From contig NZ_JASHIC010000012.1 of assembly GCF_030056705.1 (NCBI RefSeq), forward strand, positions 986-64,985: 64,000 nucleotides of DNA. Reading direction: 5' to 3'. The notes below the pieces were generated by a model. It was given only the letters and a program-made list of their open reading frames with translations, ran no database searches and was not told the origin of the DNA. This document shows, one piece after another, positions 51,941 through 58,442 of this stretch (position 1 is the first letter of the stretch; every line of letters begins with the position of its first letter). This DNA comes from Flectobacillus longus (lineage in GTDB: Bacteria; Bacteroidota; Bacteroidia; Cytophagales; Spirosomataceae). A program made the position numbers and the translations under genes.

Positions 51941-52066
51941 GAGTGATTTAGTGATTAATATGAATTTGACCAGTAGAGACGCAAAGCATTGCGTCTAGAG
52001 AGGTGTCATTTTGAAATTTAGTATCAAAAAGGCGGTTGAAAAATTAATTTCAACTGCCTTTTTTGA
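51941..52066. repeat. Composite dispersed repeat, copy 4: gagtgatttagtgatt (51941-51956), GTAGAGACGCAAAGCATTGCGTCTAGAG (51973-52000), terminator hairpin AAAAAGGCGGTTGAAAAATTAATTTCAACTGCCTTTTTT (52026-52066)
   Basis: Read directly, between the convergent M28 peptidase (+) and small membrane protein (-) genes. Confidence 0.55.
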
Positions 52067-52137
52067 TAAACATTTTGCCAAGTACCCATAGCTAACTGCC
52101 GAAAGCCCAATAATACAAATTGCATTATTACCTAGAA

Positions 52138-52395: not shown

Positions 52396-52691
52396 AAAAT
52401 ATTTGTATAAGTTGTTGAGGATTAAGTTTTACTACTTTACTAGAACAAAAAAGAGACACTTTTATTGCAACAAAATGTAATTTGTAGACCTATTTAAGAT
52501 TATTTTTCATCAGAAAAATATGTTCTTGATTCTCTAGTATCTTATATGTGGGTAAAATTTTGTAAGAGACCTTTTTTAATAGTTCTCTCTTTAATGTTTT
52601 ATGTTAGAACATGTTACTTTTCTTTAGCCCGAAAAAATAATTCACATACCGATTGGTATGTGAATTATTTTTTTTCTTATATTTACAATCC

Positions 52692-54323: not shown

Positions 54324-54349
54324 TATATTCATGAGTTTTTGAGATAAAC

Positions 54350-54384
54350 AAAAGCGGTCGAAATGAGTTTTTCGACCGCTTTTG
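54350..54384. terminator. Bidirectional terminator hairpin AAAAGCGGTCGAAA-TGAGTT-TTTCGACCGCTTTT (lone module of the composite repeat)
   Basis: Perfect 14-bp stem. Lies between the convergent fabH (+) and the defense-candidate operon (-). Confidence 0.65.
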
Positions 54385-54489
54385 TGATTTTATTTTTTAA
54401 AGAACTCTCGAATTGATTTAGGAACTTTATTCCATAGTTTTTCATCCTCCAAGTGGAAAGCATGATACTGGTTCTGTGGGTTATCTCCT

Positions 54490-55200
54490 TCAAATGGAAA
54501 TACTAGGTAAGTATCTATCATCAAAAATATAACACCAAGGGGTTTCTCGCAAATCAAAAATCGCATTATCCAATAAGTTTTGTGCTTCTTCATCACTACA
54601 TTTCAATTGTGATGCTTGTTCGTTTCTTTTAGGAGGATTTGCTTTTTTCTGGCTATTACCATGTTTTGATGAGAAATGGTATATACGTTTAGGTAGCTTG
54701 CTGTTAATAAATTTCCAGAGCAAAATATCTGAACAAAAATAGTTAATTTTCACTTTTTCAAATTCACTTTCTGAATCTACTTTAAGTAAGTTACTTTCTC
54801 CTGACAGGCTTACTGAAATAATTATATGATTGGCTGCATCTGTTAAACAATTTAAACATTTACTATCAGCATAAAATGCTAAACTTGACTGTTTTTCATT
54901 GAAGACAACTTCAAAATACAAACCCCTAGATTTATGAGGTATTGCATCCTTAAACAAAACCTCTAAATAAGCCTGTGGACTTTGAATATATTCATCAAAG
55001 CCTTCTACGTCACTAATTTCTGCAAATTTTTCAGCGAGCTTTTCTATATCCTCTGAAGAAAAATAAATATCAGCTTCAAGTTGTCTAGCAACCTCCAAAA
55101 TTGAGTAAGTAGCTTTTCTATATATCTCAAAATTTTCAGTTGTGAAATGCTCATCATTGAACATTTCGGAATGGATGTAGAATACAAATTCGTTTTTCAT
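54490..55200 (-). CDS. Hypothetical protein (236 aa), third gene of the DUF262-ATPase operon; no recognisable domain
   Basis: The start overlaps the ATPase stop as TAATG at 55198-55202. Acidic N-terminal half (MKNEFVFYIHSEMFNDEHFTTENFEIYRKA…). C-terminal Cys-containing region (…SKCLNCLTD…CSDILLW…) and a basic patch (SSKHGNSQKKANPPKRNE). Confidence 0.55.
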   Translation of the reverse strand: MKNEFVFYIHSEMFNDEHFTTENFEIYRKATYSILEVARQLEADIYFSSEDIEKLAEKFAEISDVEGFDEYIQSPQAYLEVLFKDAIPHKSRGLYFEVVFNEKQSSLAFYADSKCLNCLTDAANHIIISVSLSGESNLLKVDSESEFEKVKINYFCSDILLWKFINSKLPKRIYHFSSKHGNSQKKANPPKRNEQASQLKCSDEEAQNLLDNAIFDLRETPWCYIFDDRYLPSISI

Positions 55201-56336
55201 TAAAATCCCATTAAAAACTTTCTGTCAATTGTAAATTGGTCAAAAAAACCTTTGGGTGGATAACGTAACCTTCCACCACTTTCCAATTTAATCTTGTTTG
55301 CTACAGTACAGTGATTAGTTTCGTCACGATCAAAATGATAAATTTTTACATTATCTTTTGAAATGCCCTCGTTCCCTTCTTCAAATCTTTTACATTGTAC
55401 CAATACTCCATTAATGACATGATCACTATGTGTTTCTATAATGATTTGTATTCCTAACTCAGCAGCCAGACATATCAACTCAGTGAGTTTAGATATACCA
55501 TGCGGATGTAGGTGAGCCTCTGGGTTCTCTATTATTAACAAAGCACCAGGCTCGGCAGAGAGAATAGCTATAATTATTGGCATCACATAACTAATACCAA
55601 ATCCAACGTTCGATGCTTCAAATAAATTAGTTCTACCAGTACTTCCTCTGTTAGTCTCAAAAGAATACTTTAATGTAAAACCTAACTTTCCTTGATCTCT
55701 AATATCTATATTAATTCCACTACTTATCTCTTGTTCCCATGCTATGACCTGAGAAAATAAATCATCATAATCATTTTTAATACATAAAGCTTTAGCCACT
55801 GTCAAATTTCTATACTGATTCAGAAAATGAACAAAGTATTCAGCCTTACCATCCATTTCCGATATTTGTCGTCGAATATCTACAATTTTATCATCCTTGG
55901 GATATTGCTCTTGTGGACCAAGTCTGTTTGCACTTATGTATTGAAATTTGTAGGAAAATAGACTCTCTTCATCAATCTTACTATTTGCACTGGATTCGAC
56001 AAGATTAATAAAACTCTTTATCTTTGCCTCTTCCTTTTCAGCTGAATACTTAAAAAAATAGGAGTCAATTGAAGTCAAAAAATGAAAAGTAAAGCCATCT
56101 TCCTCTGCATATTGATAAATAGCATCTCCTGCAGTGCCAATTTTAACGGAGTTAGATTTCAAATCCAGATTTTCGAAATTCCGTTCTTTAATATAGTTAT
56201 CTCGTAGTAATAAGAGGGCTTGTATAGAAGAAGACTTACCTACCCCATTAGCACCACACAAAAGGGTTAAATTTTCAAACTCAACAAGAGTTTCAGCATG
56301 ACTTTTAAAATTTTGAAGCTTTATCTCTTTTATCAT
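55200..56336 (-). CDS. ABC-type AAA_21 ATPase (SMC/RecF-like; C-terminal DUF3696-like region)
   Basis: 378 aa. Walker A LLCGANGVGKSSSIQALLLL. Walker B/D-loop ALLIIENPEAHLHPHG. H-loop IIIETHSDHV. The 5' end overlaps the DUF262 gene by about 32 nt. Confidence 0.8.
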   Translation of the reverse strand: MIKEIKLQNFKSHAETLVEFENLTLLCGANGVGKSSSIQALLLLRDNYIKERNFENLDLKSNSVKIGTAGDAIYQYAEEDGFTFHFLTSIDSYFFKYSAEKEEAKIKSFINLVESSANSKIDEESLFSYKFQYISANRLGPQEQYPKDDKIVDIRRQISEMDGKAEYFVHFLNQYRNLTVAKALCIKNDYDDLFSQVIAWEQEISSGINIDIRDQGKLGFTLKYSFETNRGSTGRTNLFEASNVGFGISYVMPIIIAILSAEPGALLIIENPEAHLHPHGISKLTELICLAAELGIQIIIETHSDHVINGVLVQCKRFEEGNEGISKDNVKIYHFDRDETNHCTVANKIKLESGGRLRYPPKGFFDQFTIDRKFLMGF

Positions 56337-57477
56337 TAATGAATGTAGTTAATAGTGTATTAAACTCGGTATTTCTATTTATAACACTTTCTTTAGTAGC
56401 TGTTCCAGTAGTTATAGCATCAAGAAATTTTTTATTATTGGTTAAAAATTCTATAAATTTCATTCTAAACTCCAACGAGTTTAATTCTAAAAGAGATATT
56501 TCATCTTCAGGTAAGTTAGCAAATGCTACACTAATTACCTCAAAAATTGGCTTATTTACAGGTTTACGTGGATCATTGACGCTAAACCTTTTCCTAAAAG
56601 CGTCAGTTCCAAAAATATTAAAAGCTAACTTCAGCGCTTTAGTAAAATTAGCTTTTATTTCGCTGAGTTTTTTTTCATCGCTAGGAATAATACGTGTTCC
56701 TTTTGTTATAAATCTATCTAAATCTGGCTCGTAGGTTGTAAAACCCAGTAAATAAAACGCTAAAAATCTTGAGACAAAATCTAAATCTTCTTGTCTTTTT
56801 GTTTTTACAGAATTATCTGTTGCTTTTCGAAAATATATCCCAGATTCTTGTTGTTGATCTAATAAAAACTCCAAAAAATCTACTCTGTATCCCTGAAAGA
56901 GGGCTGTACGAATTTCTTGCGCCTTAAGTGGTACATCTCCCTGATTTATTCGGCTAAAAATGGTGTATTTAACCTCGTCTGGTGTTCCCTTTCCAATTAG
57001 GTTGATAGTTACTTGATTTGAATTAATCCTCCGTTTCACATCTCTGGGTAGCTCCTCCCATTTATTACCATTGTACTGTGTTAGAAACTCCAAGTTCTCC
57101 AAAACTAAATGCGATTTATTTTTCCCAACCTCACCGCGACCTAGTATAAAATGCTCCAATGTGCTCATTCTTTGAAGACCATCAACCACGTACCATTTTT
57201 TGTCATCTGCCTCATCAAAATAGAATAATGGGATAGGTAAATCTAGCATTAAAGACTCAATAAAACGACTCTTCTTAGTATTACTCCATAGATTTGGTAA
57301 TCTTTGATAACGAGGAACTAATATCTGATCATCCTCCATCAATTCTACCAGTTGTCCGATATTTCTAGGTATGATTTTAATATTTATCTCGGATGGGTTA
57401 AAAGGAATTGTAATACTTACATCCTCATTCCCTTCTTCTTTTTCAATGTCATCCCAGTCATCAGTAGATTGTAACAT
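56305..57477 (-). CDS. DUF262 (ParB/Srx-fold, GmrS-like NTPase) domain protein, stand-alone (no fused DUF1524/HNH nuclease)
   Basis: 390 aa. …ILVPRYQRLPNLWSNTKKSRFIESLMLDLPIPLFYFDEADDKKWYVVDGLQRMSTLEHF… matches the DUF262 xxYQRxxxW and DGQQR motifs. About 250-aa C-terminal region with no recognised domain. Confidence 0.8.
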   Translation of the reverse strand: MLQSTDDWDDIEKEEGNEDVSITIPFNPSEINIKIIPRNIGQLVELMEDDQILVPRYQRLPNLWSNTKKSRFIESLMLDLPIPLFYFDEADDKKWYVVDGLQRMSTLEHFILGRGEVGKNKSHLVLENLEFLTQYNGNKWEELPRDVKRRINSNQVTINLIGKGTPDEVKYTIFSRINQGDVPLKAQEIRTALFQGYRVDFLEFLLDQQQESGIYFRKATDNSVKTKRQEDLDFVSRFLAFYLLGFTTYEPDLDRFITKGTRIIPSDEKKLSEIKANFTKALKLAFNIFGTDAFRKRFSVNDPRKPVNKPIFEVISVAFANLPEDEISLLELNSLEFRMKFIEFLTNNKKFLDAITTGTATKESVINRNTEFNTLLTTFINDKRDKASKF

Positions 57478-57499
57478 AGCTATATATTTAGTTTTACTA

Positions 57500-57524
57500 A
57501 ATGTAAAAATACAACATTTACATT
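57500..57524. promoter_or_regulatory. Inverted repeat AATGTAAA-N9-TTTACATT in the promoter region of the DUF262 operon (candidate operator)
   Basis: Read directly, 23-47 bp upstream of the 57477 start codon. Confidence 0.3.
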
Positions 57525-57584
57525 GAATATAAGTAATCGATAAAATCTCTTAATTTAAGAAATTCGTCATTTTAGAGAATATAA

Positions 57585-58442
57585 TTGTATAAAACCGGGA
57601 CAGTATTTCTCCCTCCTATTTTATTTCGGAATCATTTTTTACCTTTGCAAAAAATATATTTGACCATCATTTCCATGAAAAAAATTATTAGCTGGACACT
57701 CCGAAACATTCCTCGTAAGTATTTGCAATTAGTTAGTCACTTTGCCATGAACCTATATGCGTTCTTTTTGCGAGGTAATAAGGTGGAATGTACAGTTTGT
57801 GGCTCTACATTTTCGAAATTCGTTCCTTATGGTCGTCTCGAGCCTCGTGATAACGCTCTTTGTCCAAACTGCCTTGCGCTCGAACGTCACCGTTTGATGT
57901 ATTTATACCTTCAACAAAAGACTAATTTCTTCAAAGCCGACCTTAAAGTTTTGCATGTGGCGCCTGAGTATTGTTTTATCGACCGTTTCGAAAAAATGAA
58001 AAACCTGGACTATATCACTGCTGATATTGAGTCGCCTTTGGCAAAAGTAAAAATGGACTTGCACAATATTCCTTTCGAAGACAATACTTTCGATGTAGTT
58101 TTCTGTAATCACGTATTGGAGCACGTCGACGATGATATTCGTTGTATGCAAGAAATGCGTCGTGTACTAAAACCAAACGGTTGGGGTATTATGCAATCAC
58201 CACAAGACTGGAACTTGGAAACTACTTTTGAGGATAAAACCATCACCGACCCGAAAGAGCGTGAGCGTCTGTTCAAACAAGATGACCACTTCCGTATTTT
58301 TGGTCGTGACTACCACAAACGCCTCGAACAAGGTGGTTGGCATGTTACACAAGACCGTTTTGTGATGGAAATGCCCAAAGACAAAGTAGAACGCTATGCT
58401 CTTCCGAAGGAGGAGATTATTTATTTGTGCGAAAAAAAATAA
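57585..58442 (+). CDS. Class I SAM-dependent methyltransferase (Methyltransf_11-like) with N-terminal Cys4 zinc-ribbon
   Basis: CTVCGS…CPNC zinc ribbon. Motif I-like VLHVAPEY. Post-I/II FDVVFCNHVLEHVDDD. The start may be the internal MKKIISW (57681). Confidence 0.7.
   Translation: MYKTGTVFLPPILFRNHFLPLQKIYLTIISMKKIISWTLRNIPRKYLQLVSHFAMNLYAFFLRGNKVECTVCGSTFSKFVPYGRLEPRDNALCPNCLALERHRLMYLYLQQKTNFFKADLKVLHVAPEYCFIDRFEKMKNLDYITADIESPLAKVKMDLHNIPFEDNTFDVVFCNHVLEHVDDDIRCMQEMRRVLKPNGWGIMQSPQDWNLETTFEDKTITDPKERERLFKQDDHFRIFGRDYHKRLEQGGWHVTQDRFVMEMPKDKVERYALPKEEIIYLCEKK

Follow-up and report, generated by a model that had tools for sequence, protein, structure and literature searches.

The window analysed here, a 64,000-nt stretch of Flectobacillus longus DNA, carries three closely packed minus-strand genes between fabH and a methyltransferase gene. 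They had been predicted from the letters alone to form an uncharacterised anti-phage defence operon consisting of a DUF262 protein, an ABC-type ATPase and a domainless third protein. The three open reading frames (ORFs), the 32-nt overlap of the first two genes (56305–56336) and the TAATG junction of the second and third, in which base 55200 is common to both genes, were confirmed to the exact coordinate. Searches with the PADLOC models identify the trio as nsnA, nsnB and nsnC of Menshen, a defence system described by Millman et al. in 2022. Each protein matches its own Menshen model from end to end, NsnC only via two ORFs, and the genes follow the A-B-C order on a single strand as one operon, as is characteristic of Menshen. 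The second-best PADLOC models (PD-T4-2_A, 2.7e-28; AriA, 1.3e-29; GajA) are approximately 70–85 orders of magnitude weaker. Taken together, the trio very probably represents a Menshen system of type I. It forms a 3.2-kb cassette at a variable fabH/methyltransferase slot, and a 5-bp deletion in nsnC probably inactivates the system here (Table 1).

On the basis of its sequence, the operon is thus an already known and named system, not an uncharacterised one. The hedged guess of a relation to Menshen in the original prediction was correct, and of the hidden Markov model (HMM) searches it proposed, those with PADLOC supplied the name. The domain logic of the system was worked out by Li et al. 2025 (Nucleic Acids Research, PMC12065111) in a bioinformatic dissection of 1,997 Menshen loci. 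NsnA has no extra N-terminal domain and the system therefore belongs to the common ‘type I’ Menshen. This architecture is the commonest Menshen type and has already been recorded in 27 phyla, and standard defence annotators that use the PADLOC Menshen models would detect the locus, leaving its discovery value small. The Menshen identity supports a role in anti-phage defence and, through NsnC, the third protein as the effector; the proposal that this effector is intact and novel did not hold. Phage protection by Menshen has been shown experimentally only for the Solibacillus silvestris system (PMC12065111, PMC10952713), where mutation or deletion of the DUF262 gene abolished defence (PMC10952713).

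Table 1. Features of the Menshen locus (window coordinates)
Feature	Coordinates	Strand	Description
nsnA	56305..57477	-	390 amino acids (aa); ParB-like DUF262 NTPase with C-terminal helical ParBDB domain; predicted sensor
nsnB	55200..56336	-	378 aa; ABC-type ATPase (AAA_15/AAA_21) with DUF3696 tail; predicted transducer holding NsnC
nsnC, frameshifted (pseudogene or truncated allele)	54390..55200	-	PADLOC NsnC profile split over two ORFs
5-bp deletion junction	54515..54516	-	From alignment with ERR1078381 contigs (L001, L002)
Variable segment, the whole Menshen cassette	54393..57609	.	3,217 bp; lower G+C content, different cargo in F. roseus
Cassette-specific region upstream of nsnA	57478..57609	-	F. 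roseus homology resumes at 57610; promoter presumed inside
Bidirectional intrinsic-terminator hairpin	54348..54385	.	Common to convergent fabH and nsnC; conserved flank, outside the cassette

Domains and motifs of the three proteins

NsnA aligns with positions 23–384 of the 385 positions of the PADLOC NsnA profile (E 1.6e-113). The only Pfam domain found is GmrSD_N/DUF262 (aa 45–194, E 6.7e-22), and the absence of a DUF1524 or HNH nuclease, noted at the outset, was confirmed, with neither domain matched by any member of the trio at E ≤ 0.1. Li et al. 2025 describe NsnA as a ParB-DUF262 protein with a DNA-binding ParBDB domain that acts as the sensor (PMC12065111). In line with this, NsnA carries QRxxxW, DGxQR and FxxxN motifs (QRLPNLW 58–64, DGLQR 99–103, FSRIN 174–178) and no fused nuclease, with its ParBDB domain covered only by the full-length HMM match. 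The same motifs are kept in a homologue of 49% identity. A scan for NsnA relatives on viral contigs gave no confirmed match.

NsnB matches positions 1–343 of 345 of its PADLOC profile (E 7.9e-98), and Pfam assigns AAA_15 (E 2e-28), AAA_21 (E 1.7e-21) and DUF3696 (aa 325–371, E 3.1e-09), all above gathering thresholds; the predicted ABC/AAA_21 ATPase was therefore recovered together with an additional tail domain. The transducer NsnB of Menshen is an ABC ATPase of the AAA_15/OLD-ABC type, in which Li et al. 2025 report a DUF3696 helix, a GxG signature and ‘EN’ as the last residues of Walker B (PMC12065111). All are found here, with Walker A GANGVGKS at 28–35, GFG at 245–247, Walker B LLIIEN at 266–271 and ETHSDH at 301–306. 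The QR...W, DGLQR, Walker A and ETHSDH motifs named in the original prediction are thus all present. The N-terminus of NsnB is weakly similar to SMC_N and RecF.

The third protein is recognised by the PADLOC NsnC profile although not by Pfam, which returned nothing at E ≤ 0.1 for either the truncated or the intact form. Li et al. 2025 describe NsnC as the effector, with an inactive PIN-like N-domain and a variable toxin domain (PMC12065111). A profile search for NsnC in 1.84 billion representatives (E ≤ 1e-3) gave 308 clusters. Conservation was assessed in 41 full-length sequences and a 50-sequence alignment, with residues in window numbering, and a structure model was made from P0002, a homologue 80% identical to the intact 271-aa NsnC. 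The N-domain resembles a PIN domain without its catalytic D-E-D-D residues; one acidic column alone reaches 80% conservation among the 41 full-length sequences, consistent with an inactive PIN. The C-domain is a toxin/effector domain of the BECR type, as in the common form of the system, and is predicted to be a BECR-fold ribonuclease (RNase). Its residues K179, H180, G181, D227, H248 and H251 are conserved in 98–100% of the 41 sequences, and with E239 included the set K179-H180-G181, D227, E239, H248 and H251 stands at 92–100% (41–50 sequences). A profile search of PDB sequences gave only chance-level MsrA matches (E about 1), and a Foldseek search of the full-length model against the PDB gave none at E ≤ 0.001, with 5t87 alone reaching high probability.

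The 308 clusters include stand-alone C-domain proteins of 100–143 aa. Four of these NsnC-type BECR-like domains (P0098, P0067, P0070 and P0062; 100–128 aa) carry the same KHG...D...H..H residues and may be independent toxins.

In genes, gene order and the domain make-up of all three proteins the locus resembles type I Menshen with a BECR-type NsnC, and differs in the 5-bp nsnC deletion, through which the RNase domain loses its distal half. NsnC is placed here at the level of an inPIN domain, of which there are 35 families, plus a BECR domain, of which there are nine, PB-BECR1 among them. GmrSD, BrxU and SspE (DUF262-DUF1524) share the DUF262 NTPase sensor with its QR...W, DGxQR and FxxxN motifs and, C-terminal to it, a DNA-binding domain made of helices; the Menshen locus, however, has no fused DUF1524/HNH and instead a separate BECR RNase-like effector coupled via an ABC ATPase. 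Septu (PtuAB), PARIS (AriAB) and Gabija (GajAB) share an AAA_15/AAA_21 ABC ATPase predicted to hold and gate a toxic nuclease. In contrast to these, the locus has an extra DUF262 sensor, NsnB ends in DUF3696 and not in a nuclease, and no HNH (PtuB) or Toprim (AriB, GajA C-terminus) partner was found by Pfam and PADLOC among the three proteins; AriA and GajA match NsnB approximately 70–80 orders of magnitude more weakly than the NsnB model does. The BECR toxins RelE, ParE and YafQ, and those of the CdiA-CT/LXG (YxiD) group, have no detectable sequence similarity to NsnC, whose toxin domain forms one protein with an inactive PIN-like domain and is predicted to be under the control of NsnA and NsnB, not of an antitoxin or immunity protein.

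From the folds and the proposals of Li et al. 2025, NsnA, combining a ParB/DUF262 NTPase and a DNA-binding domain, would sense phage DNA and use nucleoside triphosphate. NsnB, a predicted tetramer, would dock the N-domain of NsnC between its DUF3696 tails and, on receipt of the signal, release or activate NsnC under the control of ATP binding or hydrolysis. The inactive PIN-like domain of NsnC may serve docking or RNA binding, and its BECR RNase domain would cleave RNA and so abort infection.

The 5-bp gap in nsnC

The 236-aa ORF at 54490–55200 corresponds in frame to codons 1–228 of a 271-codon gene, after which the frame is lost. The remaining 41 codons are readable in another frame, from 54515 down to a TAA at 54390–54392. 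The two ORFs match successive parts of the 274-position PADLOC NsnC profile, the 236-aa ORF at positions 1–229 (E 5.7e-39) and a 68-aa ORF in the other frame (54390–54596) at positions 231–270 (E 4.9e-12). The end of the operon, previously placed at 54490, hence lies past the frameshift at 54390. The description of a domainless 236-aa protein stands as regards Pfam, but the protein is a frameshift-truncated part of a longer NsnC.

An exact-sequence look-up of NsnB returned two contigs, both from metagenome run ERR1078381. The 13-kb contig of this run aligns with the window over 11,153 bp at 99.84% identity, the differences being 13 mismatches and one gap. That gap is of 5 bp, CTATT on the coding strand, which is absent from the window between 54516 and 54515. 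The junction reads GATACTATTGATAC with CTATT and GATAGATAC in the deleted form, and the context of the site (GATGATA^GATAC) contains no homopolymer. In the metagenome contig nsnC is intact, and its 271-aa product matches positions 1–270 of the NsnC profile (E 5.8e-55).

A fully functional Menshen, with the gap an assembly or sequencing artefact of a draft genome, is the strongest of the other explanations, albeit an unlikely one. The deletion is seen in one assembly only, nsnA and nsnB are intact and encode the same proteins as in the metagenome contig, purifying selection acts on nsnC, and every other NsnC homologue is intact, with a complete C-terminus in 15 of the 15 others recovered (255–274 aa). 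However, a 5-bp, non-homopolymer gap is not a typical short-read or homopolymer error, and the rest of the 11-kb alignment contains the 13 substitutions with no further indel. Because it falls outside any homopolymer the deletion is probably genuine, and on this sequence evidence a real deletion is more likely than an artefact.

The deletion directly follows D228, where β2 of the predicted RNase domain ends. Missing from the truncated protein are β3, β4, the C-terminal helices and the residues E239, H248 and H251, and the loss of these elements and of both histidines would therefore disable the predicted NsnC ribonuclease here. The RNA-cleavage step of the proposed mechanism would accordingly be missing from this strain, judging from the nsnC sequence, and the most likely reading is that Menshen is non-functional in this genome through recent decay of its toxic effector.

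Several points weigh against this interpretation. The deletion is known from a single draft assembly and the intact allele from one sequencing run, both metagenome contigs belonging to ERR1078381. PGAP treated the 236-aa ORF as an ordinary protein (WP_283327369.1). Even in the type system, the assignment of sensor, transducer and effector roles is a bioinformatic proposal. Furthermore, the residues conserved across the 50 sequences (H, D, H..H) differ from the H-R-H triad that Li et al. 2025 give (PMC12065111), and the exact catalytic set is uncertain.

It is improbable, though somewhat conceivable, that the truncated NsnC still has a meaning, either in an effector-less Menshen in which it binds NsnB as a ‘disarmed’ state or decoy, or because NsnA and NsnB use another effector. 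The NsnB-binding N-domain (aa 1–168) is untouched, as are the ORFs of nsnA and nsnB, and Li et al. 2025 report sporadic domain loss and pseudogenisation in Menshen loci with a suggested link to phage tolerance (PMC12065111). However, a matching natural truncation with conserved sequence was found in none of 16 close or 308 remote cluster representatives, the near identity to the intact allele suggests an event too recent for selection, and no candidate replacement effector was found in approximately 14 kb upstream or 5 kb downstream. In public records WP_283327369.1 is labelled ‘hypothetical protein [Flectobacillus longus]’, at 236 aa and without a pseudogene flag; it should be corrected to a frameshifted nsnC, and the strain counted as having a disrupted, not an intact, Menshen.

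Probable exchange at the fabH/methyltransferase slot

The G+C content of the cassette is 0.323, against 0.384 and 0.387 in its flanks. When reference genomes were scanned with the neighbouring PepP, 80 loci in synteny were obtained. The slot of F. roseus LMG 24501 is bordered as in the window, by M28 peptidase, TetR and FabH genes on one side and by methyltransferase, PepP, glycosyltransferase and PyrG genes on the other. Nucleotide homology between the two ends at 54392, the last base of the nsnC stop codon, and resumes beyond the cassette. Between these points F. roseus holds 3.5 kb with four unrelated minus-strand genes (L004 5817–8919) encoding 257, 153, 258 and 258 aa, the two 258-aa proteins being paralogues. 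None of the four has a PADLOC match, and the one Pfam match, DUF4304 in the 257-aa protein, is weak and below threshold; this cargo may be of an immunity type or an unknown kind of defence. The lower G+C content and the different F. roseus cargo bear out the suggestion of a small, horizontally exchanged cassette between housekeeping genes.

The cassette codes for the three nsn genes alone, with no integrase in or beside it. No tRNA genes were found from 45 kb to the window end, direct or inverted repeats flanking the cassette were limited to chance-size repeats and the fabH terminator, and no further PADLOC matches occurred among ten ORFs of ≥150 aa at 40.2–49.0 kb. The simplest inference is exchange of the cassette by homologous recombination in the conserved flanks. 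The locus illustrates, on a small scale and cleanly, how one defence cassette can replace another cargo inside a conserved housekeeping slot. A sigma-70-type promoter scan gave 20 sites against 15.6 ± 4.0 expected from shuffling, not above chance, and therefore no promoter was assigned upstream of nsnA.

Strain BC115SP (L083, GCA_009905545.1) carries an intact Menshen in the same slot, with synteny to the window over approximately 14 kb and flanking genes 93–99% identical in nucleotide sequence. Its nsnC begins at the same TAATG junction and is annotated 12 codons short (258 aa) despite the intact start. Nucleotide identity to the window drops along the operon, from 93.7% in nsnA to 90.6% in nsnB and 85.2% in nsnC. 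Between the intact allele and BC115SP the ratio of nonsynonymous to synonymous substitution rates (dN/dS) is 0.068 for nsnA, 0.091 for nsnB and 0.137 for nsnC. The nsn genes are under purifying selection and nsnC is the fastest evolving, which fits the polymorphism that Li et al. describe. When the window is compared with BC115SP, dS in the cassette (0.29–0.60) greatly exceeds the value of about 0.05 for the methyltransferase and PepP on the right flank and resembles that of FabH (0.29), a pattern that suggests a recombination mosaic. The assembly is labelled ‘Cellulophaga sp. BC115SP’, and the genus name looks wrong. An NsnC of 36% identity stands in an A-B-C trio within a TonB/SusD neighbourhood (L084), so that the gene order is kept both in BC115SP and in an unrelated context.

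A housekeeping complex in conserved synteny across the taxon was not found, as the trio is absent from the syntenic site in F. roseus and Arcicella while the flanks are conserved. A ParB/SMC-like module for chromosome partition or DNA repair is scarcely credible, as is a modification-dependent restriction enzyme of the GmrSD type whose nuclease is split off, for although DUF262 belongs to the ParB superfamily, NsnB has its SMC_N and RecF-like similarity and PD-T4-2_A, AriA and GajA appear as secondary PADLOC matches, the module is missing at that site and lower in G+C than its flanks, DUF1524, HNH and Toprim are lacking, the Menshen models score far better, and the third protein has a predicted BECR toxin fold, not that of a GmrSD-type DNA nuclease.

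More tentatively, if the deletion is genuine, the window may carry a natural effector-null Menshen allele whose near-isogenic intact counterpart (99.84%) persists in the environment, in a slot that is a recombination hotspot in Flectobacillus and whose F. roseus cargo is possibly an undescribed defence or immunity module. If true, the two alleles would offer a ready-made means of gauging what the NsnC RNase costs its host in fitness or autoimmunity.

Of the neighbours first named, fabH was correct, and between nsnA and pepP lies a core class-I methyltransferase gene. This nsnA-adjacent methyltransferase (Methyltransf_11) was considered as Menshen-linked and rejected. It keeps its place beside pepP as far as Arcicella and Siphonobacter, and is therefore core and not Menshen-associated; tblastn found no nsn genes within 10 kb of the methyltransferase-pepP pair in these two genera.

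The terminator-type repeat of the original prediction exists as a hairpin with a perfect 16-bp stem, a 6-nt loop and an A-run and T-run on either side. Since F. roseus homology continues through it to 54392, it belongs to the conserved fabH flank and is not a feature bordering the cassette. A near-perfect palindrome, AATAATTCACATACC-GATT-GGTATGTGAATTATT, is located at 52632–52673, approximately 20 nt upstream of a TetR-family gene, the one before fabH. F. roseus has it with 100% conservation, and it may serve as a TetR operator. A second hairpin at 52026–52068 is built like the one beside nsnC, its GC-rich stem lying between an A-run and a T-run, both being bidirectional terminators between convergent genes, and it matches itself in reverse in the BC115SP comparison.

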